This document shows, in pieces, positions 3,045 to 56,782 of a stretch of 64,000 nucleotides of DNA. Under the pieces are notes generated by a model. It made no database searches. It saw nothing but the letters and a program-made list of their open reading frames with translations, and was not told the origin of the DNA. Numbering within the stretch: position 1 is the stretch's first letter; each line of letters begins with the position of its first letter. The position numbers were made by a program, and so were the translations under genes. The stretch spans positions 5,385 through 69,384 of the forward strand of contig JACOVG010000012.1 of NCBI GenBank assembly GCA_016177405.1, read 5' to 3'. This DNA is from Candidatus Omnitrophota bacterium. GTDB taxonomy: Bacteria > Omnitrophota > Gorgyraeia > 1-14-0-20-64-10.

Positions 3045-3081
3045 CTGGCATTCCTCACACCAAATTTGCTAGAATAACGCT

Positions 3082-4038: not shown

Positions 4039-5015
4039 CCCAGCAGCGTTTTGAGGCACTCCTTAAAAAGTTCCGAAGCACCCGGGTCCTGGTGATCGGC
4101 GACCTGATCCTGGACGAGTTCATCTGGGGCAGCGTGGAAAGGATCTCGCCGGAGGCGCCGGTTCCGGTGGTCTGGGCCCAGCGGGAGTCGGTGATGCCGG
4201 GAGGCTCGGCCAACGTGGCCGGCAACGTGAAAGCCCTCGGGGGCCAGCCCCGCCTGCTGGGGGTCGTTGGAAACGATTCCGCCGGCGAGCGCCTGGTGAG
4301 GCAGCTGAAACAAACCCGCATTCCCACCGGCGACATCCTGACCGATCCCTCCCGTCCCACCACCGCCAAGACGCGCGTCATCGCGCACCATCAGCAGGTG
4401 GTTCGGATCGACCGGGAGCAGGTGAAGCCGTTCGCGGCGGGTCTGACCCGGCGGCTCATCCGGTCGGCCACGCGGATCATCCCGGAGGTGGAGGGGGTGA
4501 TCATCGAGGATTACGGCAAGGGCCTGATTGGCCGGGAGCTCTTAAAGCCGGTGGTGGCGCTGGCGAAGCGGCACCGCAAGGTGATCACGGTCGATCCCAA
4601 GGAGGAGCATTTCGACACCTACCGCGGGGTGACCGCTTTGACGCCCAACAAAAAAGAGGCGTCGCTGGCGGCCGGCTTTCCGATCACCGATCGCGCCAGC
4701 CTCCATCGGGCGGGCCAGGCGATCCTGAAGCGGTTGAACCCCGAGGCCATCCTGGTCACCCTGGGGGAGGAGGGGATGTGCCTTTTTTCCTCCGACGGGG
4801 CCAGGCCGGTTCATATCCCGACCGTGGCGCGGGAGGTCTTTGATGTCTCCGGCGCGGGGGACACCGTGATCTCGGTCTTCACCCTGGCGCGGGCGGCCGG
4901 GGCCAGCTTCCTGGAGGCGGCCGCGATCGCCAACGCCGCCGCCGGGGTGGTGGTGGGCAAGCTGGGCACCGCCACCTGCTCGGCCGATGAGCTTCGAAGG
5001 GCCGTCCTGGAATGA
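4035..5015 (+). CDS. hldA: D-glycero-beta-D-manno-heptose-7-phosphate kinase (RfaE/HldE domain I, pfkB family)
   Basis: Strong N-terminal similarity to E. coli HldE kinase domain (RVLVIGDLILDEFIWGSVERISPEAPVPVV; MPGGSANVA). ATGA overlap with the upstream gene. Confidence 0.8.
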   Translation: MTQQRFEALLKKFRSTRVLVIGDLILDEFIWGSVERISPEAPVPVVWAQRESVMPGGSANVAGNVKALGGQPRLLGVVGNDSAGERLVRQLKQTRIPTGDILTDPSRPTTAKTRVIAHHQQVVRIDREQVKPFAAGLTRRLIRSATRIIPEVEGVIIEDYGKGLIGRELLKPVVALAKRHRKVITVDPKEEHFDTYRGVTALTPNKKEASLAAGFPITDRASLHRAGQAILKRLNPEAILVTLGEEGMCLFSSDGARPVHIPTVAREVFDVSGAGDTVISVFTLARAAGASFLEAAAIANAAAGVVVGKLGTATCSADELRRAVLE

Positions 5016-30500: not shown

Positions 30501-32872
30501 AACGCTACGGAAAACCGGCCCGGAAATACCTTCAAACCAAGGCCTTCGAAGATTCAACTCTTGGGAGCTTCATGATAAGTCTTTATCTCGCGAACCCACA
30601 GCGCGGAACCCCCAAGATCATCTTGCTTAAGATCTCTGATTTTCCGCGGGCCGACGATAAGGAGTGGCTCGATTTTTTGAAGTACGCTTCCGCCAATCAA
30701 ATCCTGGTTGTCTTCGAAGATTCTGAAGGTCCTACCCCAACGATGGGGAAGCTGATGCGGTGGGTCCAGGAGAACCCTCTTTATAAGCGGACAACCCTCT
30801 TTATGACCGATTTCGGGAAGCGTCTTGATCTGGACGACTACCCGTTGGGGGCGCTGGTTGGCTTTAACAACGCGCTCGTTACCCCTTACCAGACCGCGGC
30901 CGGCGGCTCGATCGCGGCCCCCTCCCAGGCGGTCCAGAAAGGGATCTCCCGCTGGCTTGCCCTCAAGGTCTCTCCCGGGGCAGGGGATGGCTGGCCGCAG
31001 GCTGCCCTTTCCTTACCGGATGTGCCGCAGAACAAAGGGTTCCTGGCGCCTCCTTATCTCGAGGGGAAACCGGACCCGACCCTTGCCTTGAGCTCCAGGG
31101 CCCTCTGGAAGGAGCGAGGCCTGCCGAGATTTCTGCCCGGCGTGAGCGATGAAAACGTTCTCTCAAGGGCGATTCCCCTGCACGTGGGGGCCCCCTCGGT
31201 GCCGCGGCCTAAATGGGCCAGGCAGGCGGTAGAGGAGGCCCTGAAGAGCAACCGCTGGAAGAGCTGGGAAGAGCTGGAGCAAGCGGTCGTTGAGGCAATG
31301 ATCGGCTATATTCGGCGCACGTATGGCGTCGAATATCTTGTGGATGATGTGGCGACAGGCCTCTCCGGCTCCAAGACCGCCCTGCAGGAGTTCCTCCTCG
31401 CGCTGGAGCATGTTGAGAAGAAGCCGGTTTCGGCGGCTCTCCCCAATCCTCACTACGTGGGATACGGTTCCTCACTCCGGGCGGTCATCCCGGATAAGCA
31501 GATCCATCGGTTTGGAACCCAGCGCGAGAACGACTTTGTCCCAACGATTGACGATATCCAGGCAGCGCTGGATGAGATGAAACAGAGCTCTCCGGAGGCG
31601 ACGAGGGTCCTTATCCTCACCAGCCCCGGCAACCCCACCGGCACCGTGATTTCGCAGGAGCTCCTGGAAAAATTGGACGCCTTGCTTCAGGAGAAGGGGT
31701 ATGAGGACGTTCACGTGGTTCTGGATGTCGCCTACGGACAGCTCCTCTTTGAGGGTAAGCAGCTTCAGCTGAACAACCTGTCCGACAGCGTCCTTACGCG
31801 GGTGGCTCTCCTGATGACCCAATCGAAGGAGATCCTTCAGCCCGGGGGCCGGCTGGGCACGTTGGCCATCGCCAATCCGGCGATTGTCGGCCGGATGCTG
31901 GACCAGCGGGTGTTAAAGGCCGACCGGGCCGCGATGGTAGCGCAGGCGGTTGTCTACGGCCAGGAACATGTTGAGGAATTTAACGCCTTTATCAGCAAGC
32001 ATGTGGAGCACCTGAAGCGAAACGCTAAACTGCTGACCCATATCCTCCGAAAGCACGGCGTGGATTTTATCCCGCCCCAAGGGGCCTTTTATCTTCTATT
32101 CAAGAAGGAGCGCTTCCTTGAGCTCGACGCGGAATTCACCCCCTGGGACCTGGGGCTCACCTATGTGGACGGCAACGCCTTCTATGCCCCGGAAGACGAA
32201 TGGTGGCGCATCGCTTTCTCCGGCCCCACCGAGCAGGTAGAGAAGGCGGCCCGCCGCCTGGATGAGTGGCTTACGGCGCATTCTCTCGCCGCCACGGGCC
32301 TGGAGGAGGGGGCCGCGGCGGCGGCTGCCCCCACGGTGCCGGAGGCGCTGGCGAGTCTCAATGGGCTTGAGAAGTTTTGGCAACTGCCGGATATTCCAGC
32401 GGCAGAGGGCTTCCCGGAACTTTCCGCCCGGCCCATCCTCATCGATACCCACGCCGATCCACGGCTGGGCCAACTCGCCCAGGCGTTGAGCATCATGATG
32501 GCCAAGGACCCTTCGGCCCCCGAGGTGGACTTTCTCCTGGTAGCCCGCTGGGAGGAAGTCTCCCCATTGCTGGAGGGGTTGAGTCAAATTAACCGCGAGG
32601 CCGCCGAGGAGTTCCTCAAGCCCCGGATCATCGCCTACGGCGGTTCGGAGGGGAGCCGAGAGAATGCTCGACGCGAGGCCATCGTCCGGTTGGCCAGGCG
32701 GTTCGGGCTCGGCGACGATCCGGAGAAATTGATACGGTCTGGGTCCCTTAAGGTGATCGGCGTCCTTACGCCAGATCTGGCGCTTGAGCTAAAGGATTTC
32801 CTTGGAGAGGTTGGATTACACTTTACGCAGGACGCCTACGATCGTTTGAAGGCGCTTCTGGAAGCGGCATAA
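21518..32872 (+). CDS. Giant multidomain protein 1 (3784 aa). N-terminal signal-peptide-like segment, then GT2 glycosyltransferase, pfkB-family sugar kinase, ROK-family sugar kinase and class I/II PLP aminotransferase domains, plus long uncharacterised regions. Carries 11 [SAT]GLEE motifs.
   Basis: GT2: VIPAYSRG...VGMTDADSNQ (DXD). pfkB: GGKGVIALLERAKAAGA...DGTGTGDAYSAAV. ROK: FISFAGPVDPVSGRAGVPFAAPNIPGFENYPL...VRVDVRNDAPSGRMGE. Aminotransferase: TSPGNPTGTV...LLMTQSKEILQPGGRLG. Uninterrupted ORF. Confidence 0.75.
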   Translation: MKPNLNQEESRCQTPKPVSDTVVPRLFLNKRPLALLLVLTSLTTWACPAFALRPAAPKESGLEEELSRTLTSAPARPELVAGPASGLEEWSDRFHFIIFPEGDRDDRAIATGFGPADHTLWIRIIQSDGFTSRLGFQVKDPSERAFPGEVLVLPGRTIGNLLRKTVPQRDLWRAWDIGVDKLTPYKRRSELAAFLARYPEFWKAVQKQKALAIAGGRDEQALSFQSGDYAVLFYTPGEDPAQWKIFADLSANPHRDDQPVTLTFSVSPRHEFNRKSVYLKRRGLPSSSAQPFSQRQTLTHQRAPNPPSGLEELGARLAEIPLSAGLTKLFQGLGQTQPDMVDRFLTIQESAKKQWLAILEKHPGELKMAVVIPAYSRGVDRIRSQDSLTLKLLQLKKLAEADTRGRVRFVIYVVDDKPEAGLQAEVDRARQAAGVTPEGPVQVRYLRLQDAVDKRRPDLKDLWFDLVPGEQGSRRSIKWGAVRYGMSVAVEEGARVVGMTDADSNQQASELPNLFAPILLEDRAAAVGSRFLNGSASNNDQIGPHNFIEYFLYNPLVKLAMPEIAPIEDLQSGLKAFSAKFLKAALPKMATHKFAGDSELLFLMAQAGGRIAEVPRSEIEESPGQSAVNPASYMSFVEQLKLQLVLHAGGRGFPPAASRFGRAIQGLNVGFWTAQRRRFEQALNEVQAGRKTHAEVEGLLHDLLFPATGLEEGEEFTGEAHPGDIIWNPNDPQGIRYVVDRLEGGRVVAHPEKEPKAVVRFHPDALKRDFKRASPPLKTLKERAAQVPAEVQELSIRGGRRLEKQRAAFYRIQDLIGQDPEVLRRLKSVRVGAKVVLYGATSEELSHFQGLGLEPADYDFVLLEPVSNPGMAGDLVKKAWMKASVVFAGISVMDFITLVQPPGVAGSKERLPFPDWADPAKPLTVVDQFPEGAAAYLAKAERVISGGPSHSGARVAWQTLGGGVQGLGKRGDVRVSHVSRVGEGTEGEKLLVSLRDLRESGEGVEVSGMKPAKGRVNASTLVLSQPEGKRNFIHQLGASNELTPADVPDSAFQGEIFSLHGSELAQRFMKGGKGVIALLERAKAAGAITTWDTVVDPFQHWGSGNLSDRDFEKLLSLIDVFTPSFGEALDIIRLREGLSDAQVKKWAPSQAARYFLDRGSEALFLKLDEKGSLIWTTQRSIFGRPAHFRMPVLWGLKKRDGTGTGDAYSAAVIVGILMDWPVEKIARVATAAGGLVLENYGGTLGDYTFPDVLKAAERLEGQIDVKMALDYPTLSLWEVRPGGTSAGFPEGLLPEAKPELDTLLLLAVRPDEAIAVAEGQPDDHLARGPVDRLRVRLNGRTGPLSPSEEALAEAVQREPRLGSTRSTQEQSDLLTYIASALLIPPAIDDPSAAGLEEKNRKPEAASAVWDGLTVDQAAEMLFAYRLRKSLYAGRKIFPVAGSKSFLDTMFNGEIRSWLQTVANGHPNESLKLVDDGTTVYASSSATGLEEGGQEKVQNEVQEALLRFQGLLSHATSKDLHVLSPQTLKRLPDLQGLGGFGLFLLPDSKLPLDQLPGAIKRRLGRRPKANFYGAGAETTILGLAAPGAGGRSGWLNLVVAGNGTLEEFLAGTLLPGLGIPDKHWKGEDDLAQIALDLWTLAPARAAGLEEKPQTEDQEDEWGGVVRLNLYAEPDRDDRIVIYNLGGSRAVWVKWLKTENPSRISVGFLAADAGGRHLPGDVVVLSGETVQRALDEAQSPQWIWPASNRIPDLRDPGIRVAIRKAMEKRLSEAKASFLQVPPAPQEMEFRDGGYAVVFDTAGDDPSSWRPVADLSVLPKNQRKIELVLSALGEVNLDRKSQSQFHQENDQPAVDPWGSVSSPLVSGDAWRRKVQSQLDDYVTVVQAPPQGHEERDPDFPSKELLEGVHSIEGSLKDGKGPAVAEVIRKVRGNLRALERGGRISPVDFEALDDLLETAVIEAERPRRLPAGPSAVPPRPLDEKEAPPSEFAEGIPLGPAAEPPSGLEETVQEKFGKAPFAVGVRLHGSTIAAALVNRKGEVETTILEPTQWRKLPEILELLGNPPPDRVNKAILELIPRPDHILSSEQRDLASRIGDRITEEVIQHILALVRSSGLPREKFKYTFISFAGPVDPVSGRAGVPFAAPNIPGFENYPLAEKVAHGIEKELGMKVRVDVRNDAPSGRMGETSPSGTIPGAKGVISMIWGTGINADSDTVPLFEVGHAIVGRIEEDGLAHYEFRGAAENRPALEPDEFEVEQQLGGEVLAAVFRQYGFKDGGDLTQQAAPDNSDQAKRDSARSIIEDVGKDMGRAIASLLAHCRKEHQFVPTRFVLTAGVAEKFGKGLVDSKGRDLLTGAVQDGASQELVGRFNVSKADAETMVKAVIRSSMDDRREFAAAASALPFAAAGFPADGLSVLPVSETSLEFLKKLNPDTPAEFVQHQLLMDGPQRVAAVLEKGKETQAVGMLVAGRLFWGTWEDFKKAGLTDEQSASAFLDYLRNGIHEAQVTGFRNLFIERVILRRSPKNGSVHLQLSDGPVQPDDEVTSMVLLHDKKHNLENLAHSRSKTPLPTGKAAKPPKSGLEEKPPVEKRVTGKTKLAAGDLLVRRQLGEPIRGYQITKIGWPQWWRGITVKQTSIEATPPPLPRVTRRILKSDPTWTHLPLAGLREEDLVRLGLETFLSKITPGEKAAWKKEGREAAAKQKQHKEEIRAALGPYAAPLPTRTKPKPPFQVTQGAREFEILKTQVEKEGHLVAVEPTSYYPAADGGISSENVGSMVTSLLRKARMGESELKHIAFFLPGTPKEERTPRNVFVVSLDQPIFQGKDAPQTLKTALDAVLKYLLSQDSKETPTERVQVPLARWKPPGASAQDPHELVPVILPVPPRPDPTAGPPQNRRAGLEEAAGAFLAGVVEQTRAEQDPYAPLLGTDEAREAAARYLTSQWTAPERRIDPSQLFITPGGAGALELLIRMAADVTDAPLKALRDPNGRQWIWLSKALEERYGKPARKYLQTKAFEDSTLGSFMISLYLANPQRGTPKIILLKISDFPRADDKEWLDFLKYASANQILVVFEDSEGPTPTMGKLMRWVQENPLYKRTTLFMTDFGKRLDLDDYPLGALVGFNNALVTPYQTAAGGSIAAPSQAVQKGISRWLALKVSPGAGDGWPQAALSLPDVPQNKGFLAPPYLEGKPDPTLALSSRALWKERGLPRFLPGVSDENVLSRAIPLHVGAPSVPRPKWARQAVEEALKSNRWKSWEELEQAVVEAMIGYIRRTYGVEYLVDDVATGLSGSKTALQEFLLALEHVEKKPVSAALPNPHYVGYGSSLRAVIPDKQIHRFGTQRENDFVPTIDDIQAALDEMKQSSPEATRVLILTSPGNPTGTVISQELLEKLDALLQEKGYEDVHVVLDVAYGQLLFEGKQLQLNNLSDSVLTRVALLMTQSKEILQPGGRLGTLAIANPAIVGRMLDQRVLKADRAAMVAQAVVYGQEHVEEFNAFISKHVEHLKRNAKLLTHILRKHGVDFIPPQGAFYLLFKKERFLELDAEFTPWDLGLTYVDGNAFYAPEDEWWRIAFSGPTEQVEKAARRLDEWLTAHSLAATGLEEGAAAAAAPTVPEALASLNGLEKFWQLPDIPAAEGFPELSARPILIDTHADPRLGQLAQALSIMMAKDPSAPEVDFLLVARWEEVSPLLEGLSQINREAAEEFLKPRIIAYGGSEGSRENARREAIVRLARRFGLGDDPEKLIRSGSLKVIGVLTPDLALELKDFLGEVGLHFTQDAYDRLKALLEAA
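21548..21581. promoter_or_regulatory. Perfect 15-bp inverted repeat CGGTGTCAGACACCG-aaac-CGGTGTCTGACACCG, 30 nt inside the giant gene 1 ORF. Each arm is itself a near-palindrome.
   Basis: Read directly from the sequence. No in-frame alternative start lies downstream before the hydrophobic segment, so it sits in coding or 5'-proximal sequence. Confidence 0.6.
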
Positions 32873-39758: not shown

Positions 39759-40235
39759 ATGGGACAGGGTAAAGCAGGGTGGTGGGTCGCGGGTTTGGCG
39801 GCGGCGGTGGTCTTTATCAGCATCGGTTACGGCATGGGGCGCAGGGCCGGGACGGCCGCCTCATCGGCCTCGCTGGACTTCGCCGGCGCTTCGGCCCCGG
39901 CGATTTCGGTGGAGCCCATCCAGCCGCAGGCGGAATTGGCGGCCATCACGGTGAGCCCTTCGACGCCCGCCGAGCTCGCGGCCATTCAACCCGCCGCCGC
40001 GGAAGCCTCCGCGCCGTTGCCCTTGGAGGAATCGGCCCGGAATCGGAACATTCAGCTGGCCCTGAAGGCCGCCGGGTTTGACCCGGGTTCCGCGGACGGG
40101 AAGATGGGACCCCGCACCCAGACGGCGGTTCGGGATTTTCAGAAAGCCCAGGGGCTGACACCCGACGGCAAGGTGGGCCCCAAAACGTGGAGCAAGCTGG
40201 AAGCCTTTCTTAATAAAAGCGCGTCAAACGACTAA
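39759..40235 (+). CDS. Membrane-anchored peptidoglycan-binding (PG_binding_1) domain protein
   Basis: N-terminal TM WWVAGLAAAVVFISIGY, Ala/Pro linker, C-terminal NIQLALKAAGFDPGSADGKMGPRTQTAVRDFQKAQGLTPDGKVGPKTW. Confidence 0.75.
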   Translation: MGQGKAGWWVAGLAAAVVFISIGYGMGRRAGTAASSASLDFAGASAPAISVEPIQPQAELAAITVSPSTPAELAAIQPAAAEASAPLPLEESARNRNIQLALKAAGFDPGSADGKMGPRTQTAVRDFQKAQGLTPDGKVGPKTWSKLEAFLNKSASND

Positions 40236-40256: not shown

Positions 40257-40967
40257 ATGAGACACTTCATGAAGACGGGGGTCGGGATTTTTGCTCTCAT
40301 TCTGGCGCTGGCGGGCTGCGGCATCAACTTCTACGCGGGCAGGCCCAGCGACGTCAACCGCATCGGCCAGCTCATGGCCGAGCTGGATCGGATCAAGACG
40401 CAGAAGGATCAGGAGTCCGATCAGCTTCGGGAGGCCAAATCCCTTCTGGAGAGGCGTCTTCAGAAGGAGATCTCCGAGAAGCAGGTGAAGCTGGAGATGG
40501 CCGAGCGGGGCTTGGTCCTCACCTTTGTCGCCGAGGTGCTCTTTGATTCCGGCAAGGCGGCCGTTCGCCCCGAGGCGGGCCAGACCCTGGCGAAGGTGGC
40601 CTCCGTGATTCGGGAGAAGGTCTCCGACCGGAACGTCGGCATCGAGGGCCACACCGACAACGAGCCGATCAAGCATTCCGGATGGAAATCGAACTGGGAG
40701 CTTTCCACCTCCCGGGCCACCAGCGTCCTGCACTTTCTGGAGGACAATGGCGTCAGCCCCAAGCTTCTGGTGGCTTCCGGCTACGGCGAGCACCGGCCCG
40801 TGGCCGGCAACGACGCGGTTGAGGGACGGCAGAAGAACCGCCGCGTGGAGATCGTGATCCTGCCCAAGAAGCTGACCAAGATGGAGCAGGCGGTCCTGCG
40901 GAAGGCCTCGGAGTCCGGAGAGCCTGAAGCGGTTCGCAAGGCCGAGGCGCTGGAAGAGTACAAATGA
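40257..40967 (+). CDS. OmpA/MotB-family lipoprotein (OmpA C-terminal peptidoglycan-anchoring domain)
   Basis: Lipobox LALAGCG, coiled coil, OmpA_C blocks GHTDNEPIK...NWELSTSRATSV...GYGEHRPVA...NRRVEIVIL. Confidence 0.8.
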   Translation: MRHFMKTGVGIFALILALAGCGINFYAGRPSDVNRIGQLMAELDRIKTQKDQESDQLREAKSLLERRLQKEISEKQVKLEMAERGLVLTFVAEVLFDSGKAAVRPEAGQTLAKVASVIREKVSDRNVGIEGHTDNEPIKHSGWKSNWELSTSRATSVLHFLEDNGVSPKLLVASGYGEHRPVAGNDAVEGRQKNRRVEIVILPKKLTKMEQAVLRKASESGEPEAVRKAEALEEYK

Positions 40968-46949: not shown

Positions 46950-49900
46950 ATGAGAACTAACACGTTAGCCGGCCTTGTCCGCCGATTTTTCGCTCTTTGG
47001 CTAATTCTGGCCCTCGCCTGCCCAGCCCCTGCCTACAGCCTCCGCGAATCCCAGGAAGACACCACCCTCGACGAGCTCCCCCGCGCCCTCACCGGCTTGG
47101 AGGAGACTCCATTACCCCTGCCTGCGGCATCCGGCAATGGCGATGAGATTCTCCGAGAGATTGCCGAGGCCAGGCGGTTGGCCGAGGGAAACACCCTTGA
47201 TCAGAATGTAACCACGATAGCCAGCGTGGCAGTTGACGGTTCTGAAAAGAGCATCCGAATGAGCTGGCAGGATGGGACGTGGGAAGATCTTTTCGACTCC
47301 TTCTCGGTAGCCGTCAAGACCTATCCCTTGCTAAGGCCCCTTGTTCCGGGCCCGGAGACAGTAACCGAGCAAGTCAGGCAAAAGATAGAAGAGGCGAAGG
47401 GCCTGGAGATCCCCGTTTTTAAAGGAGACGTCGGAGAGTTTTTCCTTTCTGTCGGGTCCGCGGCGCGGCTAAAAGAAGAACTACTGGTTTTAGGCCGTAA
47501 GCCCCCAAGCCGGCAGGAACTTGATGAGCTTGCGAGCTCTTTGCGGGAGGTGCTTGAAGAACCGCGTTCAGGCCGGACGGCCCGCCAGCGTTTGGACGCC
47601 CTGCGCGCTCAAGCGGGCGAGAAAGAGCGGCGTTCCCTCGAAAAAGCCATCCAAGCGATGGATGAGATGGTCAGGGAGTTTCTTGCCGACAACGAGACCA
47701 TCTGGAAGGCCATCGCCGTCTTAGAAAAGGCGGTCGGCGGCGATTTAAGAAGAGTTCCTGGCGGAGTGGCTGGCGACCTTCTTCGCCCGCTCACCCAAAG
47801 GGCCGGCGATTGGTTTTTATCCGGCCTTCTGCTTCGGGCCCTGCTTCAGGACTCTCCGGGCGAGAAGACGCTGGAGATAGAAAAGATCAAAAAGCGCCTG
47901 GCTCTCATGGAAGAGGAAAAGCGGTCGGTCTTGCGCTACCGGCTTTCCCGCCGCGCCGACGCCCGGGCGCTCCGGGCGGTCTTTTACGATGCCTATCGGC
48001 TGGCATTGTCGGCTGCCCTCGAGGCCTTGACGGAAGAGCTTTCCCAGGCCGACCCTGCCGACGAAGGTAGAGCCGTCGATCTTGAGATAAGAATCTGGCT
48101 GATGGGGTTTGAGGCGCTTCATCTGGTGAAGGAAGAAGCCGCCACCCAGGCGGTTTGGAGCTCCGCCAGAGAGGCCAGGCCAAGCGCCGGCCCCGTTAAC
48201 AACATCCGAAGGATGACTCCCTCGGTCGGCGTTTTGTTCCTCCGCCCCGATGGCACCTTGAGACGGTTTGTCCCAGGCGGCGGCAGCTTCCACGCCCCGC
48301 ACATGGTCGGTTATTTCACGCCCACCCGGTTTGCCCAGTGGTATGAGCCGGGCGACCGGATCTACCTTCTGGCCAACACCTTGACCGGCGCGCTTGCCCT
48401 GGATCAGTTCCGTTCTTATCTGGAATCGGTGAACCATCTCCAGGCGGTCTTCCCCGATCTGCCGACACCCGGTTTGGGGATAGCCACGGAAGGAGGGATC
48501 ACCCTCTACCATCCCAGGGCCTCGGCAGGTGATCCGTCGGGCTGGGAGAGGATCTGCGAGCCCGTCGCTTCCGCCCTCTCCTGCTACATTGAATTCTTCG
48601 ACCAGATGCACAAGGCGATTCTTAACGACGACGATAAATGGCGAAGGAAACTTGCCAGGGGTCAGTTCGGGAATCGATGGCAGAGCGTGGTGCGCGACGC
48701 CTATCCCGAAAAGAAATATCCCGGCCTCCTGGCCCAGGTTGCGAAGGATGTGACCATCCAGTTTGGAAAGAGGATTAGCAACCTGCGCGACGTAAAAAGC
48801 GGCGAGCTGGTTTACGAGATTGGCTTTCTGGAGGGGCAGGTCAATCGGATTGTGGGAGAGCGGATCACGCAGGGCCTTCTGGGAGGTTTTTTCACCGAAG
48901 AGAAGGTGTCCGGCCTGACCGATCGGCCATTCCCCGCGCCGACACCCCCCGGCGCTCCTGCCTCTCCGGCTGTCCCCCCGGCGGAAACTGTTCAGGAATC
49001 TCCCTTTGCCGCCTCCGCGGACGAAAGAGAAGTTTTTCCTGCCGGTCTCCTTCAGGAAGCCCCGCCCCTTACGGATCCCGACCCCGTCCGCCGCTTACTG
49101 GATGAGATGACCGGCCTTGCCTTCGCCGGGGGATATCTCCCGGACATGGTGAGCACGGAGTACGAGGACTTGGAGAGAAGGCAAATCCGCCTTGTCATGG
49201 ATGCCGGAGCATCTCGGGCGTTGCCCTTCCTCTTGGTCAGTCTGGAGTTCCCGGAGACCAAACTCTCCCCCCTTGCGCCGGAGCCCCGCGTAGGCGGTCG
49301 GCCGGTTGAGCGCCTTATCGTGAAGCGGATACGCAAGGAAGAGGCCTCGAGGATCGTGGAGGGCATGCCTGGCGCGGCCGTCTTCAAGGAGGTTATTCCC
49401 AAGGTGCAGCGCCTTTTGGATGCCGATGCCCCTCCCAAGGAGATGGAGGGGCCTGTCAAAGAGCTTCTCCCGGCCCTCGTCAAGTTTCTTGAGCAAGGGG
49501 GTGGCGGCAGAGGGCCTATGGAGCAGGCGGCCCAACGGCTTGAAACCGACCCAGCTTTCCGGGAAGTGATGGAGTTTCTGAAAAGGCGTTTGGACGTCAT
49601 GATGGAGGGGGATCTGCTGAACGAAGAGCTTTGGAGGAAGCGTGGAAAACTGGAGGCCGGTTGGGCGCGAGAGAGGATCGCCGCGTTTCGGAGCCGGCTC
49701 TCCGATCCGCGCATTCAGGCATGCCTGGACTGCGATCTTGAGAAGCTCCCTCTCCAGGGAAAGGTTTCCTACGACTTGGTTGCCGCGCCGGTTGCCGACG
49801 CGGAGGGCGCCGCCAGGCAAGGAGAGCTGCTGGCCCTCATGGAGCGGACAGATCTCAAGGCCCTGCGCCAGAGCTATGTGGAGGCCCTGCGCCTGGCCTG

Positions 49901-52900
49901 CTGGAAGAAGGCCATGGAGCTCCAGAGAGATTTAGAGACCCGGGCCTTGGACTACCGCTTTCAAAGGGAGTCTCTCGTCACCGCCATGCTTGCCCTCACC
50001 CTGGAGACAGGGGCTGTTTTGTCTTCGCTCATGCAGAGTCAGGCCGGCGAGATCCGAGCGAACGAATCGGTCAAGCGGACGCGGCTTGCCACAGGAATCG
50101 GGGTTCTTCTTTTAAATCAGGACAACTCGCCGGCGCGATTTGTCCCAGGCGGCGGGGGAATGGATCTGGTTCACCTGATGGGGACGCACTACAACCGCCA
50201 CTCCATTAGGCCATGGCACGAGAAGGGTCAGAAGATTGTCCTCTGCCAGCTTTCCTTCACCGGCCCCCCCGGCATGGATCAGCTGGCGGCCTTTTTGGAC
50301 GACTGGTTCTATCTTCAAAGAGGTCTGGACGGAAATCCGGAGATCCTTCTCGGGGTGGCGGCGGCAGATGGGGCGATGCGGGTTTATCGGCCCTCCGGTC
50401 CCCGCTTGCCTGCCGAGGATCCGGTGGGGTGGGCCCGGGTTAGAGATCGGGTGGAAACGGTCTATGGGGATCACTACAACAGGTTTATCGACGCCTTCAA
50501 GAAGCTGGAAGGCAGTCCCGAAAAGGGACCGGACGCGGCCCTGTATCGGGAGGCAGGCCTTCACTTCCGCTCAAGACTGCTTGAAGCCCTTCAAGAGAGT
50601 CTGCCGAATCCGATGCCGGAGCAGATCATGGCCAAGATCGAGGATCGTTTTGGCCCGGATTTGGACGAGCTCGCTCAGGACCCGAGGCCCATGAGGGTTT
50701 CCTCTTTGCTGGCCAAGGTAAAGGCGGCTGTTTCAGAGTGCCTGGCGGCCCACCTGATGGAGTCCGACCTCTTCGTCCCGGTGCAGGTGCCTGGGGTCAC
50801 GGGGAGACACAAAGCGGCCGCTGGTGGGGCCCTGCCGGCCGTTGTCAGGGAAATCCTGGAAATGAGAGAAAAGGCGGAGGGCGGATTCTTGGGTCCCAAC
50901 GTCACGGCCGCTTCCGCCAGCAAACTTTCCTGGACCGAGGTGCGGCTCTGGATGAACTGGACCGGTTCCCCTGAATATCCGGGGGGCCCCGTCGTCCTTC
51001 CCTTTGGGTCGCCCGCCATGCGGCCCTTGGCTCCGGATCTTGAATTGCTGGAGCCCGAGGTTCGAGAGGCCATCTCGCGGGGGAAACGTTGGCAGGTGAG
51101 CCGTTTGGGGCGGGATGCCGGGCTCAAGGAGATGCGCGGCAATCCGGCCATTTCCGCGCTGGAGAAGCTCCTCCTGCCTTTTGAGAAGGGGGAGCTGGTT
51201 CAGGAGACAGAAGAGGATTCCAAGGCCGCCGTGAAAGCTGTTAAAGAGAGAGGCGAGTACGCCGCTTGGGAAAAGAGGTTGGCCAGAGATCGCAGCGCCC
51301 CGGAGAAGACAAAATTCAAACAGTGGCTTCGTGAGGAATCCTACAAAGAGCTTGAAAGGATCTTGAGGGAAAAAGAGAGAAAAATCAGGCAGAAACCGCC
51401 TCCCAAGCCGCGGGAGCTTCTCGCGGCCAGCCGGGCGGTTCTGGAATACGTCCCGAACAAGGGCCGGCCTGATTTCCGCGAACGCCCCGATCTGGCGCCG
51501 GCGATTTCCGAGGCCAAGATCCTCTTTGAGAAAATCCTTCGCCTGGCCCAGCGGATCATGCAGGCCAGGGTCTTGCTGGAGAGGGCCGCCCCATCGGGCA
51601 AGGTTCCGGCGGCGCCGGCCATATCCTGCTTGGAGCCGCTGATGGGCGATACGGAAGGCTGGCCCACCGTCTCGATTAAGATGAGACGCCAGCTGGAAAA
51701 TCTGAAGGCCCTTTCCCCCGAGAGCCGGGTGAATCTGGAGGAGATCCTGCAGATCGTTGAAGAGGCCAGGGAAGAGGCGATCACCTGGCACACCTTCTTA
51801 ACTTTCTCCAGGGTTCCCTGGGCTCCCCTGCGCCTGGTGTATTACGACGTCTACAGAAGCGTTCTTTTGGACGAGGTAAAACGGTTGGAGCTCCTCGCGC
51901 CTGAAACGAATGGGCAGGAACTGGAATGGCAAAGCCGCGCCGTCGCGCTGGAAATCATGCACGCGGAGCTGGAAGCGGCCTTCTCCTCCCTCCTGCAGAG
52001 GTGGGCCCGGCCGCCGGAAGAGAAGGAGAGCGATCAATTCACCCACCCGGTGGAGGGATCCGGCCTGCTTGTTCTGGATCAGGCCCTCCGGCCGGTCCGG
52101 TTCATCCCCGGCGGCGGGCAGTTTGTGGGGGTGACGATTCTGGCCCCCTATTACGATCCCATTCGGGTGAAGGAATGGACGGGCGAGGCCGGCCAGGCGG
52201 TCTATCTCTACAACACCGTCTCTGGCTGGCCGGCCGTCGAGTCCCTCGACTATTACTGCGCGGCCGCGCGTCTTTTCTCCGCCATGTATCCCGGGGCGGC
52301 CCTCCCCTGGTTCGGGGTGGCGGCCCCCTCCGGCGTCCGGGTGTACCGGCCCCGAGAGGATCTGGCCTCGCCATCCGGGTTAGGCCGCGCGTACGATCCG
52401 ATCGCCCGGGAGGAGGCCCGCTTTAAGCGGTTTACCATAGGCCTGGACATTCGGTTCCTTAGAATATCGAAAGAGGATATCCGCTTCCTGTTCCTGGCGC
52501 GAGGCCAGTTCCTGGGCGAGCTGGAAAAGGTCTTGAGGGACGTTTTTGACGAAGCAACCGTTCAGGAGATGATGCGAGAGGTTCGGGATCGTTTGGGCCA
52601 ATCCATCGAGGCGCTTGATCCCGACGAGAAGAATCTCGACGCGCTTGGGCTGGCGTTCGCGCGTCTGGTTGTTTCGGTCAGGCGCTTGATTGGGGAGCTG
52701 GCCGCTCCCCATCTGCTGGATGAGCTTTTCGAGGAGGTTCAGGTGGACTGGGAACACCCTGTCCAGCCGCTTGCGATTCCGCCGCCGGCACAGGCGCCGC
52801 CGGAGCAGGCGGTTGAGCGCGAACCCGAGACCACCGCCCCCGCCCCTCTTTTGCTGAAGCTGGACGACCAGGCAGCCGAAGCCGGCCCTCCTCCGCAACC

Positions 52901-55900
52901 GATGCCCGGGGAAGCAGGGGGCAAGCCAGCCAAGGGAAGCAAGGGGCCTCAAGGGGAGGATGTGAAACTGAAGGCGGCGGCCCGTGAGATCGCTTCAAAT
53001 CTGGCAGGTCTGGCAGATGCCGCGGGATTCCGAGGGCGCTGGGTTGAGAGACTGCTGGCCGAGAAAGTTCGCGAGAGACTCAAGGGCAACAACTCCTGGC
53101 AGCCCACCAATGGCATAGAGCCATTCCGGCAGGTATTGGTGCAGGGCCGCGAGAAGCACCACAGGCAGGGGGTTGAGTTGGCCGGGGCGATCGGCAAATG
53201 CAAGACGTCGGAAGAACTGGAACGGCTGAAGGGCCAAGTGGACGGCCTTGGGGACGATGAGGTTGACAAGCTTTATGAAGATAAGAAGCGGAATATAGTC
53301 CACCAGGGCTTGGCCGAGCAGGCGGTAGGAGACCCTGTCTTTCAAGCCTGGTGGCCGCCCAACAGGATTCAGGCGGAAGCTCTTGGTCTTCTTAAGAAAA
53401 ATCCAGGGTGGACTTACGAGGATCTGAAATCGAAACTGCAGAAGATCCGGAAGAGTTGGGAGGAAGAGGCCCGTCAGCGGGAGGAGGCCCGGATGTTAGC
53501 CGCGTCAGAAAGGATTCTTGAGGCGGCAGGGAAAGAGCCCTCTCTTCAGGGACTCGCGCAGGAGAGGCTGGGCGCCCTCGCGGCGGCTTTTCTTAAGGAG
53601 AAACCCAAAGGAACTCCTGCCGACTTTGTTGCGCAGCTTAGGGAGATGATGTCCCAAGAGGGACAGAAGAAGAGAGGGGAGCTCAAGCGGCTCTGCCTTG
53701 GAAAGACGCAAGAAGCAGGGGTCTCTCTGGACTGGATCTTTCCCAGCAATCTCCTGGAGTTGGAGGCGGACGTCTATCTCGACAAAGATTCCTCGCCTAG
53801 CCCGGAGGGTTTTATCGCCCACCTAAAAGAGCTGGCGAAGCAAAGACGTTGGAAGGAACTGCGTGAAATAGGGATTCAAGCAAATGCCAGTGAGCAGTTT
53901 GGCCTTTCGTTCGTACAGATTGAAGAGGAAGCAAGAGGCCACGTCTCTGCAGCACCCTTCACCGACTGGGACCAGGATCAGGGGGCTTTCGTCGAACGCC
54001 TGCGTGAGCGGGCCGCCCAGCTTGGGGAAGAACTAAGAAGAGACCTTATCCGGCGGGTGAGCCAGGCGGTAAGAAGCGCCCTGAACCCTGACTACTGGGG
54101 ATTCGAAGAGGGCTGGCTTGAGGCCCAGGCGGAAAGCTGGCTTACCGCGGTGCCATTATCGTTTGACCCCGACCAGCCGGAGGCCTTCCTCCGCCAGGTG
54201 AAGCTCGAGCGCCTCATTCGGGAGGCCCAGACAGCCCAGGAGCTTACGGAGTTTTCCATTCCTCCCGATGTCGTCCGGCAGGAGGCGGAAAGGCTTCTCG
54301 CTGAACAGGGGATAGAGGAGATAAAGAGAACACCCATCTGGTTCGTTGATCGGCTCTACAAGATTTACGACGCCAAGAAGAGAGAGGAGGAAGCCAAGAA
54401 GAAGGGGTGGGCCGGCCGCGTAGGGAAGGCGACCAGTTCCAAGGAGCTGGCGGAACTTCTGTCACAGCCCGACTTTCCGGAAGAGCTGCGGCCCGTCGCG
54501 GAAAACCGACAACAGCTCTTTCTCCTGGTGGAAACGGCGAGAGAGAGCGCCCTGCTGCGGCAGGCCGGTTTTTCTGACGACGAGCTGATTCAGGAGGCAG
54601 CCCAATTGTTGTCTGGTGGAGAGCCGGTCACGCCGGCCGGTTTTGTAAAGCGCCTTCATAAGATCTGGCGAGAAAGGGAGGCGCTCAAAAGAGCCGAGCG
54701 CATCGAACAACTTCTGGCGGCGGCAAAGGCTGACCCTCCCGAGGGGGGCTGGATCTTCAATGGAGCAGAGCTTCTTGAGCGGGCCACCGGCTTTCTTGAG
54801 TTCTCCGGCGCGCGGGAACCGGTGCCGGCCGACTTCGTGGCCCAACTCAAACAGGAGCAGGCCAGGAAGAAGCTTGAGGCGGAGGAAAAACGGGTGAGAA
54901 CCCTGGTGGAAGCGGCTCAAGCCGCCTCGGACCGCTCCCAGTGGCCTTTTTCAGATGCCGAGCTTGAGGCCATGGTCAGGGTCTTTCCCGGGAATGATCC
55001 CGCGGCTTTTCTAGCCCACCTTCGAAGGAAGATTGAAGAGGAGAGGGTGAGAAAAGAAGAGCAGAAGCGTAGGGAGGAGCAGGCGCGCCTGCAGGGATTT
55101 CTGGAGGGCTTCAACCATATCAATACCGAGAGAGGATGGGGGGTATCGCCAGAGCGCGCGCTGGCCGCCGCCCAATCCCTCCTTCGGGAAAGCCCATCTG
55201 CCACCGTTGATCAGATGGTCGAGCTTCTTGAGCCCGCCAGCCCGGAGCAAGTCCGGCAGGCGCTCTCGGCTTGGAACCAGGCAGCCGATGAAAGGGTGGA
55301 TTTCGGAAACCAAGAAGGCGCTTTCACGATCAGCGCCACAGAGCTCTTGGATCCAAACCTCTGGTATTTGACTTCTCATGCCAGCGTAGGGGTGGAAAGG
55401 ATCGAGCGGACCCTGGAGGCGGCCCGATCAAATCCGGACCCCGAGAAAGGGGTGAAGCGGCTGGCGAGCGTAGAGACCTTCCTCGAAGAATTCGGGCAGG
55501 CCATCAACGACCTCCCGCTGGAGCGGGGGAGGAAATTGGATGGTCTGACCCCCTACAGCGTTTTTAGGGAGCGCTTTATGACGGGCAGCGATACTCCGGC
55601 AACTCGAATGGAAGCAGTCAGGCAGTACTTGGACGTTCTGAAGAATCGGATCCGCACGATAAAACAGACAGCCCTCTTGAGGCGGCTCAAGGAGTATTTG
55701 ACTGGCCGGTGGAGCATCGAAGAGGACAGGGAAGAACCCACCGCGTCGCTCATTTCTCCGGACGCGTTGATTCCATTGTTGGTCGAAGATGTGAACAAGG
55801 GCTGGACCTCTTTGCGGGCGGCGAAACTCCTTGAGGCGGGCAAGACGTTCATCGGGGCCCATCCATGGTATCCGTCGGGTCTGCTGGCCATGAACGTCCA

Positions 55901-56774
55901 GACCCTCTCGACCACCGACGGGGTTTCTCCAGATGAGGTTTTGGCTCTTCTTGACGCAGCGCTTGCTCGGCAGAAAGAGAATCCGAAGTCCCTGGGAGAG
56001 GTGGTGGCGATGGAGGACCACCTCACAGAGATGATTGCCCAGCGGCTCGAAGAATCGGCTGCCGTGGGAGAATCCGATGCCGGGCTGGAGGAGGCGAGGC
56101 CGACCCCAGCGGTGCGGATCCCGGAGGGGGATGAGGTGGTTGATCTGGGGACACTGGAGGGGGGGGAGACTCTTGGCTTATGGATTTTTCCGGGAAATGG
56201 GGAACGATCCCTGATTGGCCGGATCTTGATAGATGGAGAAGTGAAGGGCGCGGTTTTTCTAAGATTCCCCAATGAGACTGCCGTGCTGGGCGATATCCTT
56301 GTGGGTGAAGAAAAAGGGATGCCAGATCCGCTCCATCGAGGCAGAGGGGTTGGGACGAAGGTTATGGATTGGATTCTTCGAAATCGCATACCGCCCCGCG
56401 TGCGCCACCTTACAGCCGTTGTGAGGAATCCATACCTCCTGGCTCTTTTTAAGAATCTGGAAGAGAGGAAACTGCTGATGGAAGCCACGGTAAGCGGCAG
56501 AGGTTTGGACGTCTGGATAGCTGATTTCTTAAGAGAGCATGAACTGAACAGACTGCAGGATGAGTACGGGACCATTGACGTAGATTTTAGAGCGGGATTG
56601 AACTCAAACCATGTTGTTGCTGGCCCCTCGACTGGGCCCGGGGCCGGCCTGGAGGAGGCGAGGAGGGTGGAGGCGCTGTTCGCGCTGGAGCGGGCGGCCG
56701 GTGAAGCCGGCGTGCCGGCGGGCGATTCAAGCGAAAAGGCCGAGGAGGTTCGCGCCCACGGCGGCATGCTATAA
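46950..56774 (+). CDS. Giant multidomain protein 3 (3274 aa). Signal peptide, three tandem copies of a roughly 630-aa module, a charged helical region with P-x-x-F-[VIL]-x-x-L repeats, and a C-terminal GNAT N-acetyltransferase domain. Carries 3 [SAT]GLEE motifs.
   Basis: Signal MRTNTLAGLVRRFFALWLILALACPAPAYS-LRE. Module signature RFVPGGG at nt 48264, 50136 and 52098 (the third copy reads RFIPGGG). GNAT motif LHRGRGVGTKVMDWIL flanked by DAGLEEAR and GAGLEEAR. Confidence 0.75.
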   Translation: MRTNTLAGLVRRFFALWLILALACPAPAYSLRESQEDTTLDELPRALTGLEETPLPLPAASGNGDEILREIAEARRLAEGNTLDQNVTTIASVAVDGSEKSIRMSWQDGTWEDLFDSFSVAVKTYPLLRPLVPGPETVTEQVRQKIEEAKGLEIPVFKGDVGEFFLSVGSAARLKEELLVLGRKPPSRQELDELASSLREVLEEPRSGRTARQRLDALRAQAGEKERRSLEKAIQAMDEMVREFLADNETIWKAIAVLEKAVGGDLRRVPGGVAGDLLRPLTQRAGDWFLSGLLLRALLQDSPGEKTLEIEKIKKRLALMEEEKRSVLRYRLSRRADARALRAVFYDAYRLALSAALEALTEELSQADPADEGRAVDLEIRIWLMGFEALHLVKEEAATQAVWSSAREARPSAGPVNNIRRMTPSVGVLFLRPDGTLRRFVPGGGSFHAPHMVGYFTPTRFAQWYEPGDRIYLLANTLTGALALDQFRSYLESVNHLQAVFPDLPTPGLGIATEGGITLYHPRASAGDPSGWERICEPVASALSCYIEFFDQMHKAILNDDDKWRRKLARGQFGNRWQSVVRDAYPEKKYPGLLAQVAKDVTIQFGKRISNLRDVKSGELVYEIGFLEGQVNRIVGERITQGLLGGFFTEEKVSGLTDRPFPAPTPPGAPASPAVPPAETVQESPFAASADEREVFPAGLLQEAPPLTDPDPVRRLLDEMTGLAFAGGYLPDMVSTEYEDLERRQIRLVMDAGASRALPFLLVSLEFPETKLSPLAPEPRVGGRPVERLIVKRIRKEEASRIVEGMPGAAVFKEVIPKVQRLLDADAPPKEMEGPVKELLPALVKFLEQGGGGRGPMEQAAQRLETDPAFREVMEFLKRRLDVMMEGDLLNEELWRKRGKLEAGWARERIAAFRSRLSDPRIQACLDCDLEKLPLQGKVSYDLVAAPVADAEGAARQGELLALMERTDLKALRQSYVEALRLACWKKAMELQRDLETRALDYRFQRESLVTAMLALTLETGAVLSSLMQSQAGEIRANESVKRTRLATGIGVLLLNQDNSPARFVPGGGGMDLVHLMGTHYNRHSIRPWHEKGQKIVLCQLSFTGPPGMDQLAAFLDDWFYLQRGLDGNPEILLGVAAADGAMRVYRPSGPRLPAEDPVGWARVRDRVETVYGDHYNRFIDAFKKLEGSPEKGPDAALYREAGLHFRSRLLEALQESLPNPMPEQIMAKIEDRFGPDLDELAQDPRPMRVSSLLAKVKAAVSECLAAHLMESDLFVPVQVPGVTGRHKAAAGGALPAVVREILEMREKAEGGFLGPNVTAASASKLSWTEVRLWMNWTGSPEYPGGPVVLPFGSPAMRPLAPDLELLEPEVREAISRGKRWQVSRLGRDAGLKEMRGNPAISALEKLLLPFEKGELVQETEEDSKAAVKAVKERGEYAAWEKRLARDRSAPEKTKFKQWLREESYKELERILREKERKIRQKPPPKPRELLAASRAVLEYVPNKGRPDFRERPDLAPAISEAKILFEKILRLAQRIMQARVLLERAAPSGKVPAAPAISCLEPLMGDTEGWPTVSIKMRRQLENLKALSPESRVNLEEILQIVEEAREEAITWHTFLTFSRVPWAPLRLVYYDVYRSVLLDEVKRLELLAPETNGQELEWQSRAVALEIMHAELEAAFSSLLQRWARPPEEKESDQFTHPVEGSGLLVLDQALRPVRFIPGGGQFVGVTILAPYYDPIRVKEWTGEAGQAVYLYNTVSGWPAVESLDYYCAAARLFSAMYPGAALPWFGVAAPSGVRVYRPREDLASPSGLGRAYDPIAREEARFKRFTIGLDIRFLRISKEDIRFLFLARGQFLGELEKVLRDVFDEATVQEMMREVRDRLGQSIEALDPDEKNLDALGLAFARLVVSVRRLIGELAAPHLLDELFEEVQVDWEHPVQPLAIPPPAQAPPEQAVEREPETTAPAPLLLKLDDQAAEAGPPPQPMPGEAGGKPAKGSKGPQGEDVKLKAAAREIASNLAGLADAAGFRGRWVERLLAEKVRERLKGNNSWQPTNGIEPFRQVLVQGREKHHRQGVELAGAIGKCKTSEELERLKGQVDGLGDDEVDKLYEDKKRNIVHQGLAEQAVGDPVFQAWWPPNRIQAEALGLLKKNPGWTYEDLKSKLQKIRKSWEEEARQREEARMLAASERILEAAGKEPSLQGLAQERLGALAAAFLKEKPKGTPADFVAQLREMMSQEGQKKRGELKRLCLGKTQEAGVSLDWIFPSNLLELEADVYLDKDSSPSPEGFIAHLKELAKQRRWKELREIGIQANASEQFGLSFVQIEEEARGHVSAAPFTDWDQDQGAFVERLRERAAQLGEELRRDLIRRVSQAVRSALNPDYWGFEEGWLEAQAESWLTAVPLSFDPDQPEAFLRQVKLERLIREAQTAQELTEFSIPPDVVRQEAERLLAEQGIEEIKRTPIWFVDRLYKIYDAKKREEEAKKKGWAGRVGKATSSKELAELLSQPDFPEELRPVAENRQQLFLLVETARESALLRQAGFSDDELIQEAAQLLSGGEPVTPAGFVKRLHKIWREREALKRAERIEQLLAAAKADPPEGGWIFNGAELLERATGFLEFSGAREPVPADFVAQLKQEQARKKLEAEEKRVRTLVEAAQAASDRSQWPFSDAELEAMVRVFPGNDPAAFLAHLRRKIEEERVRKEEQKRREEQARLQGFLEGFNHINTERGWGVSPERALAAAQSLLRESPSATVDQMVELLEPASPEQVRQALSAWNQAADERVDFGNQEGAFTISATELLDPNLWYLTSHASVGVERIERTLEAARSNPDPEKGVKRLASVETFLEEFGQAINDLPLERGRKLDGLTPYSVFRERFMTGSDTPATRMEAVRQYLDVLKNRIRTIKQTALLRRLKEYLTGRWSIEEDREEPTASLISPDALIPLLVEDVNKGWTSLRAAKLLEAGKTFIGAHPWYPSGLLAMNVQTLSTTDGVSPDEVLALLDAALARQKENPKSLGEVVAMEDHLTEMIAQRLEESAAVGESDAGLEEARPTPAVRIPEGDEVVDLGTLEGGETLGLWIFPGNGERSLIGRILIDGEVKGAVFLRFPNETAVLGDILVGEEKGMPDPLHRGRGVGTKVMDWILRNRIPPRVRHLTAVVRNPYLLALFKNLEERKLLMEATVSGRGLDVWIADFLREHELNRLQDEYGTIDVDFRAGLNSNHVVAGPSTGPGAGLEEARRVEALFALERAAGEAGVPAGDSSEKAEEVRAHGGML

Positions 56775-56782
56775 TGCCGGGC

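Follow-up and report, generated by a model that had tools for sequence, protein, structure and literature searches.

In MARTX toxins, a repeat-rich scaffold carries enzyme modules between short linker sites, and cutting at such sites frees the effectors in the target cell, with its supply of cofactors. The cutting is done by a cysteine protease domain of the toxin itself, with cleavage after Leu. Viral polyproteins encode 3C-like or other Glu/Gln-specific proteases in cis, and the sites within one polyprotein are normally varied. Among long proteins of the bacterial phylum Omnitrophota, the GNAT acetyltransferase domain (PF00583) and the starch synthase domain (PF08323) are some of the commonest domains (10.64898/2026.06.07.730766), and cleavage of the giant proteins of this phylum is suspected but unproven (West-Roberts et al. 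2023, 10.1101/2023.11.21.568195). Here, we describe a module in a protein, giant 3, encoded in a 64,000-nucleotide (nt) stretch of contig JACOVG010000012.1 (the window), whose proteins are named in NCBI, by exact look-up, as those of a Candidatus Omnitrophica/Omnitrophota bacterium. On balance, the module is best explained as a self-contained, divergent GNAT-fold cassette in an exported protein, with its edges marked by the pentapeptide [S/A/T]GLEE. The features that define it are as follows.

46950..56774, + strand: giant 3 open reading frame (ORF), 3,274 amino acids (aa); NCBI MBI1953088.1, HYS41_03070, from a Candidatus Omnitrophota metagenome-assembled genome
56079..56642, + strand: inter-motif cassette, 188 aa, 20.6 kDa, pI 5.3
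56079..56099, + strand: left junction motif A-GLEE-AR, aa 3044 to 3050, within the direct-repeat copy at 56074-56099
56136..56495, + strand: GNAT-like core, aa 3063 to 3182, from AlphaFold secondary structure and Foldseek matches
56199..56381, + strand: match to PF00583 (Acetyltransf_1), aa 3084 to 3144, profile positions 31/32 to 86 of 116
56337..56354, + strand: R3130-G-R-G-V-G3135, putative GNAT motif A pyrophosphate-binding loop (Q/R-x-x-G-x-G/A), from the pattern
56496..56642, + strand: C-terminal part of the module, aa 3183 to 3231, ending in the G/P/S-rich linker NSNHVVAGPSTGPG
56643..56663, + strand: right junction motif A-GLEE-AR, aa 3232 to 3238, within the second direct-repeat copy at 56638-56663
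56664..56774, + strand: 36-aa tail and stop codon, following the right motif

A preliminary description of this DNA had claimed that two AGLEEAR copies bracket an acetyltransferase domain, and the bracketing is confirmed: the two GLEE strings begin at nt 56082 (aa 3045) and 56646 (aa 3233), and the positions given earlier (56083 and 56645) were correct to within 1 nt. The two A-GLEE-AR copies share 20 of 21 nt and lie exactly 564 nt (188 codons) apart, and the 26-nt direct repeat that contains them and flanks the cassette is identical at 23 positions. Across the junctions, the protein reads GESDAGLEEARPTPAVR and GPGAGLEEAR, as well as VGESDAGLEEARPTPAVR; the string ARPTPAVR begins within the left junction. 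The domain had also been called C terminal. It does lie near the end of the protein but is subterminal, with the 36-aa tail following the second motif. The tail opens directly after this last giant 3 motif with the element RVEALFALERAA (56664-56700), and 24 more residues follow.

Several features of the module resemble those of GNAT enzymes. In the predicted core, five beta-strands are followed by a long helix starting at the coenzyme A (CoA) loop, the strand HLTAVV, and the helix NPYLLALFKNLEERK. The loop R3130-G-R-G-V-G3135 matches the motif A pattern exactly and directly precedes the long helix; the sequence that begins with it, RGRGVGTKVMDWIL (aa 3130, nt 56337), lies inside the 188-aa inter-motif segment. 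PF00583 matched a 184-aa segment with an E value of 8.5e-4, already corrected for the 24,736 Pfam models, and a score of 20.0 bits against a curated gathering cutoff of 20.7; the score was 19.4 bits on a 230-aa segment and 15.3 bits (E = 0.024) on the whole protein. PF13508, of the same Pfam clan, matched the same stretch at an E value of 0.07. Both families had been proposed earlier as a check on the domain. Among PDB sequence matches, rice serotonin N-acetyltransferase (SNAT) ranked first or third, aligned over motifs A and B, although these matches were not significant. When AlphaFold models of a 230-aa and a 170-aa construct were compared with the PDB by Foldseek, essentially all of the top 50 places were taken by GNAT-superfamily enzymes for both models, with neighbors including SNAT, SpeG, GCN5, RimL, HAT1, PseH, and AAC(6'). 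Foldseek probabilities reached 0.99, with local root mean square deviations of 2.7 to 5 Å over 60 to 95 columns.

A number of observations weigh against this assignment. The PF00583 score does not reach the gathering cutoff, and the match spans only profile positions 31 to 86 of 116. No match to the GNAT-like segment was found in an NCBIfam scan, and none of the PDB sequences matched it significantly (E ≥ 0.37). An exhaustive phmmer search with the C-terminal 230 aa against 1.84 billion (1.84e9) representative sequences recovered only giant 3 itself. A word-indexed protein search with the same query also gave no homologue but never returned the query's own protein, though present in the collection; its negatives are therefore weak, and the exhaustive search is the reliable one. 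Since there are no homologues, neither an alignment, a conservation check, nor a structure based on a multiple-sequence alignment could be obtained, and AlphaFold was run on single sequences. The mean pLDDT values were low (45.8 for the 230-aa and 50.0 for the 170-aa construct), aa 3183 to 3231 were modeled only at very low confidence, and the Foldseek scores were weak (TM, 0.2 to 0.41; E, 5e-3 to 5e-2). The single-sequence models may echo only the motif A signature. The position of a Tyr in motif B, a frequent general acid in GNATs, is occupied by Phe in the giant 3 module (ALFKNL).

Two further points bear on the fold. The beta1-alpha1-alpha2 arm is not predicted, since in both low-confidence models alpha3 is preceded by five strands and by no helix. 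The bare pattern [QR]xxGx[GA] is not significant alone: the four motif-bearing proteins described below contain it 11 times, and giant 3 accounts for 3 of these. The domain claim of the preliminary description thus stands as far as the GNAT-like features and the CoA-loop pattern go; it is not borne out by Pfam at its cutoff, by significant PDB sequence matches, or by high model confidence and TM scores. Nor did structure prediction fail to give a GNAT fold, yet with pLDDT values of 46 to 50 and weak TM scores, the fold is not cleanly confirmed. Weighing both sides, we consider a GNAT fold likely for this module. Judged from the models, it appears to be a highly divergent "minimal" GNAT with an atypical acceptor site and without the canonical alpha1-alpha2 pair.

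The pentapeptide at the edges of the cassette is not confined to giant 3. Exact [SAT]GLEE copies total 21 in four proteins of the window, giant 3 and the three listed here, against about 0.14 expected from composition.

21518..32872, + strand: giant 1, 3,784 aa; 11 [SAT]GLEE copies; a PfkB-like and a class I/II aminotransferase domain, each in its own inter-motif segment
32908..39597, + strand: giant 2, 2,229 aa; five motifs; a glpX-type fructose-bisphosphatase (FBPase) and a transaldolase domain, each in its own segment
19..3006, + strand: starch-synthase-like protein, 995 aa; two motifs, one of them 19 aa from the C terminus

When single proteins were shuffled 2,000 times, the highest GLEE count reached was 2 to 4. 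The motif was absent from 24 housekeeping ORFs (9,622 aa), and it has no near-variants (GLED, GIEE, or xGLEE with a nonsmall x). The upstream flank is Pro/Ala rich and linker-like (Pro in 7 of 21 copies at −3; Ala in 8 of 21 at −2), while the residue immediately before GLEE is always S, A, or T and never Pro despite the Pro-rich flanks; a small residue (A, G, S, or T) follows in 14 of 21 copies. Junction subtypes recur, namely, PPSGLEE, A-TGLEEG, AAGLEEK, and AGLEEAR. All copies are in a single reading frame, which, together with the restriction to S, A, or T, argues for recognition of the motif at the protein level.

The motif is also positioned with respect to domains. All seven Pfam matches in the four proteins (PfkB, class I/II aminotransferase, glpX FBPase, transaldolase, glycosyltransferase family 5 [GT5], GT1-like, and GNAT-like) fall between consecutive motifs, and no domain is interrupted by one. 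Each Pfam domain is alone in its segment, except in the starch synthase, whose GT5 and GT1-like parts fall within one. The earlier suggestion that GLEE delimits single domains therefore describes the Pfam domains well; as a general rule, it is contradicted within giant 3, whose first 3,000 residues include three modules of ∼620 aa and a helical repeat region with no internal motif, so that the motif is not a universal separator. In addition, some copies are only 25 to 46 aa apart, 19 aa from a C terminus, or just past a signal peptide. As a pattern, [S/A/T]GLEE is supported as a genome-specific pentapeptide found at the module junctions of at least four proteins encoded here. It appears to be previously undescribed: a GLEE-type junction motif is absent from the main text of the two studies of Omnitrophota giant proteins (10.1101/2023.11.21.568195 and 10.64898/2026.06.07.730766) and from literature searches (words "motif" and "GLEE"). 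The best relatives of the neighboring proS gene in GTDB genomes (49 to 52% identical; Omnitrophota DeMMO3_44, Desantisbacteria, and one further bacterium) came without GLEE-rich ORFs or conserved synteny in the genome.

What the cassette might do depends on where giant 3 resides. Its hydrophobicity profile shows one strongly hydrophobic segment, at aa 1 to 31, and otherwise a single weak internal peak; the first motif lies shortly downstream.

46950..47042, + strand: predicted N-terminal Sec-type signal peptide or signal anchor, aa 1 to 31, from hydrophobicity
47091..47105, + strand: first junction motif, TGLEE, aa 48 to 52, close behind the signal peptide; giants 1 and 2 have the same arrangement

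Apart from such an N-terminal signal peptide, none of the giants has a transmembrane segment, and therefore the bulk of each should leave the cytoplasm. As acetyl-CoA is cytoplasmic, catalysis by an exported giant 3 would need delivery into another cell; otherwise, the module would serve for noncatalytic binding. The reading we prefer is the following. Residues ∼3055 to 3231 form a cassette near the end of a signal-peptide-bearing, lineage-specific modular Omnitrophota protein. The central helix would open with the CoA loop, R3130-x-x-G-x-G3135, and the beta5 strand and alpha4 helix would come next; the module may bind acetyl- or acyl-CoA and acylate an amine. A sequence-specific partner would recognize the invariant motif in the protein rather than in the nucleic acid, and for this partner a processing protease that frees a GNAT fragment of ∼20.6 kDa is the leading candidate and a docking or sorting partner comes next. 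If delivered into another cell, the module could have an effector-like role, and if not, it would be a noncatalytic binding unit.

The alternative that survives best shares the fold and differs in function. Here, the module would be a GNAT that is catalytically dead or serves for ligand binding or structure, staying attached to the exported scaffold, with the motifs used for docking or sorting. Signal peptides placing the bulk of the giants outside the cytoplasm, where acetyl-CoA is absent, fit this idea, as do the motifs near N and C termini, which suit docking, and the strong divergence of all enzyme-like domains in the giants (27% identity for the aminotransferase; 64 versus 136 bits for PfkB). 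The CoA-binding loop is, however, intact in sequence, and we regard this alternative as possible but rather unlikely.

A second alternative, in line with the preliminary description, holds that giant 3 is a polyprotein, the motif is a proteolytic site, and the free ∼20-kDa GNAT works with the giant 1 aminotransferase in an amino-sugar pathway. The occurrence of motifs only between recognizable domains and in Pro/Ala-rich linkers is consistent with processing, and their strict invariance suggests enzyme-like recognition. The small residue after GLEE in 14 of 21 copies recalls the sites of Glu-specific viral proteases. The literature on Omnitrophota giant proteins, too, suspects posttranslational cleavage without having cleavage points (10.1101/2023.11.21.568195). 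Against this, Pfam detected no peptidase family in the giants or adjoining genes, the sole peptidase of the window being the housekeeping M50 protease RseP; this is a burden for our preferred protease partner as well. About 80% of the giants is Pfam dark, which limits the negative to known families. No C39 or subtilisin protease, dockerin, or multitransmembrane bundle was found in the giants either. Cutting at motifs 25 to 46 aa apart or near the C terminus or signal peptide would yield tiny peptides, and the large modules of giant 3 are not separated by motifs at all.

The amino-sugar part of the polyprotein proposal fares worst. The giant 1 aminotransferase (PF00155) has as its nearest relatives aspartate-aminotransferase-like enzymes of ∼390 aa (22 to 30% identity; 27% for the best listed), so it is of the aspartate rather than the sugar type. 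The FBPase of giant 2 is of class II, and the remaining enzyme domains (PfkB kinase, transaldolase, and starch synthase) belong, like it, to central carbohydrate metabolism; the set forms no amino-sugar route, and this claim of the preliminary description is dropped. The full polyprotein scenario is therefore unlikely. Taken on its own, cleavage at the motif has slightly better prospects, although we would put it forward only tentatively. Bolder still is the idea that [S/A/T]GLEE is a polyprotein maturation signal at which a candidate protease cuts exported multienzyme precursors, at every copy, into single enzymes, and we rate it as improbable. If true, single enzymes such as the ∼20.6-kDa GNAT might act in a prey or host cell that provides acetyl-CoA, ATP, and pyridoxal phosphate, and the motif would supply the cleavage points missing in the giant-protein literature.

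According to a third alternative, the segment is no GNAT but an orphan alpha/beta module of another fold, with R-x-x-G-x-G and the subthreshold Pfam match arising by chance. It draws on the same weaknesses listed above: a Pfam score below the cutoff with about half of the profile matched, a bare motif that recurs within giant 3 and across the four proteins, nonsignificant PDB sequence matches, no homologues, and low-confidence models that lack the alpha1-alpha2 pair. Chance nevertheless sits poorly with an E value of 8.5e-4 that is already corrected for 24,736 models, with a second family of the same clan matching the same place, with models from two constructs whose top 50 PDB neighbors are almost exclusively GNATs, and with a GNAT-like order of secondary structure around the loop. 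We therefore think it somewhat less credible than the polyprotein proposal, though close to it.

Base composition sets the cassette apart from the rest of the protein. Its GC content at third codon positions (GC3), 0.574, is the lowest of all 188-codon windows in giant 3 (protein mean, 0.698; z = −3.7); 0.4% of giant 3 windows are as low, and the lowest is centered on the cassette. After the right motif, GC3 in the tail is back to 0.84. In a circular-shift control on giant 3, the motif-defined segmentation captured the GC3 heterogeneity (P = 0.004). Overall, GC3 is 0.70 to 0.76 in the giants versus 0.84 to 0.90 in their housekeeping neighbors. Because the GC3 outliers coincide with motif-bounded segments, the modules seem to have separate histories, consistent with their acquisition as cassettes. 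A second compositionally foreign cassette was observed in giant 1, where the inter-motif segment at aa 85 to 307 (21770-22438), bounded by two SGLEE copies with near-identical codons, has a GC3 of 0.547 (z = −4.9 versus the rest of giant 1).

Codon choice within the motif is likewise unusual. The Leu codon is CTG in 16 of 21 copies (background, 35%) and ends in G in 19 of 21 (background, ∼50%), while the first Glu is GAG in all 21 (background, 68%). As a result of these uniform codons, 19 copies contain GGAGGA. This uniformity exceeds what the amino acid constraint requires and counts against a purely protein-level motif. Two nucleic acid rules were considered and are not supported. Internal translation starts after the GGAGG in the motif were rejected as a general explanation, as no consistent start codon lies downstream and the genome makes weak use of Shine-Dalgarno (SD) sites (GGAGG precedes none of 26 starts). 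A target-site-duplication-like rule failed in that adjacent copies are not more alike than nonadjacent ones (P = 0.23).

The least tenable alternative, and in our view quite unlikely, is that the motif is primarily a nucleic acid feature, either a GGN-CTG-GAG-GAR recombination junction for cassettes or an SD-like GGAGG pause site, with the peptide as a by-product and the GNAT module remaining covalently attached: the uniform motif codons, the recurring junction subtypes, the 26-nt direct repeat and lowest GC3 of the GNAT cassette, and the similar outlier at aa 85 to 307 of giant 1 would be accommodated, but the idea runs against the single reading frame of all 21 copies, the S, A, or T that always precedes GLEE, the lack of greater likeness between adjacent copies, the ∼29 occurrences of GGAGGAG outside the motif, and the weak SD use with no consistent start codon downstream.

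The giant 3 ORF and its flanks are reproduced with 0 differences in two independent Logan assemblies, so the ORF is not an assembly chimera. Its stop codon TAA overlaps the ATG of proS (TAATG, 56772-56776), which implies cotranscription and possibly translational coupling with an essential gene. The giant 3 ORF is real and, as the sequence suggests, is probably coexpressed with essential genes. NCBI annotates MBI1953088.1 only as a hypothetical protein. Housekeeping genes surround it (uppS, cdsA, dxr, rseP, and ispG upstream; proS, nusA, infB, trpS, and scpA downstream), and genes for 3-deoxy-D-manno-octulosonic acid (KDO)/lipopolysaccharide, purA, and an H+-pyrophosphatase lie farther upstream in the window; all four unusual proteins, the three giants and the 995-aa starch-synthase-like protein, sit among housekeeping genes. 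Between giant 2 and uppS, we observed genes for a small protein with a PG_binding_1 domain (39759..40235) and an OmpA-family lipoprotein (40257..40967), two cell-envelope proteins that thus neighbor the exported giants. No gene or RNA was detectable at giant 3 on the opposite strand, in other frames, or among the known RNAs of Rfam, and PADLOC, PHROGs, and NCBIfam scans gave no match.

Most of giant 3 consists of repeated architecture. The first ∼2,000 aa (47127-52823) form three ∼620-aa modules that are 27 to 28% identical to each other, each with an invariant RF(V/I)PGGG core; an alignment around this RF[VI]PGGG core had no match in JGI metagenomes or in the protein database, the latter with the same search tool whose negatives are weak, and the modules had no homologue in the PDB. 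At ∼53600-55100 (aa ∼2220 to 2710), there are at least seven helical repeats of ∼60 aa with the signature P-x-x-F-(V/I/L)-x-x-L-(K/R), for example, PADFVAQLREMM and PADFVAQLKQEQ, in a region rich in Glu, Lys, and Arg. The remainder of giant 3 had no significant match in the PDB.

The giants resemble one another at both ends. All three have a common leader (21518-21700, 32908-33010, and 46950-47105) in which the hydrophobic segment is followed by (W/L)A(C/A)P(A/G)..(F/Y)(A/S)LR, and the first [ST]GLEE comes 4 to 19 residues after this box; judging from its sequence, the leader may be an export or sorting signal that they have in common. At their C termini, giants 1 and 2 carry a paralogous module of 175 to 192 aa (32294-32869 and 39070-39594; BLASTP identity, 36%); in both, it begins precisely with the last motif, and it has no Pfam, PDB, or metagenome relatives. 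Homology between this module and the GNAT segment of giant 3 was considered and rejected, as a MAFFT alignment was suggestive but the hhalign probability was 0.15 and shuffle z scores were −1.0 to 0.5. The extreme C termini are alike, with RLKALLEAA* in giant 1 (32850-32869), RFEALLKAA* in giant 2 (39575-39594), and DLLQAA* in the 995-aa protein (2985-3003), and RVEALFALERAA of giant 3 resembles the ends of giants 1 and 2; these termini may constitute a shared C-terminal signal. A free-standing PfkB kinase (4035..5015) scores 136 bits, compared with 64 bits for the PfkB-like domain of giant 1 (24428-25246; aa 971 to 1243). As the latter is far more diverged, the enzyme-like domains of the giants are not simply fused housekeeping copies.

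A GNAT domain is itself ordinary and expected in a long Omnitrophota protein; the unexplained part is the invariant motif that flanks it. This motif gives a testable handle on whether modular and giant proteins act whole or are cut, and where. For such a test, the GNAT cassette is the simplest case, being one small module with two sites and a predicted product of 20.6 kDa. Its anomalous codon composition hints at the gain of modules at junctions and thus bears on how such proteins are built.

Compared with known systems, the module is closest in its central part to the GNAT superfamily (PF00583; rice SNAT, 6k5m and 7dai; E. coli SpeG, 4r9m; RimL, 1s7l; human GCN5, 5trm), sharing the loop and, after it, a strand and a motif B-like helix. 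It differs from this superfamily in scoring below the family cutoff without detectable sequence relatives, in having extra predicted beta-strands in place of the alpha1-alpha2 pair and Phe in motif B where many GNATs have Tyr, and in its location close to the end of an exported protein of 3,274 aa. As in viral polyproteins, a short recurring site in which a small residue comes after an acidic or amide one lies at domain borders; unlike in those polyproteins, the copies are identical, 21 times over. MARTX toxins offer a parallel to giant 3 as a large, exported protein in which a repeat-rich scaffold is followed by an enzyme module at short sites, but no protease domain was found here, the site is a strictly invariant pentapeptide, and delivery into cells would be assumed by analogy.

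Other counterparts are the long and giant multienzyme proteins of Omnitrophota, which come from the same phylum and likewise combine tiled metabolic Pfam domains and a signal peptide with unique sequences. The lengths of the proteins described here (995 to 3,784 aa) are below the 10,000-aa threshold used for giants (10.1101/2023.11.21.568195 and 10.64898/2026.06.07.730766). Giants 1 and 2 are multienzyme proteins (class 1 in 10.64898/2026.06.07.730766), with two unrelated enzyme domains each, and giant 3 has only the GNAT-like one. By their sequence features, the motif-bearing proteins look like small members of the Omnitrophota multienzyme class.

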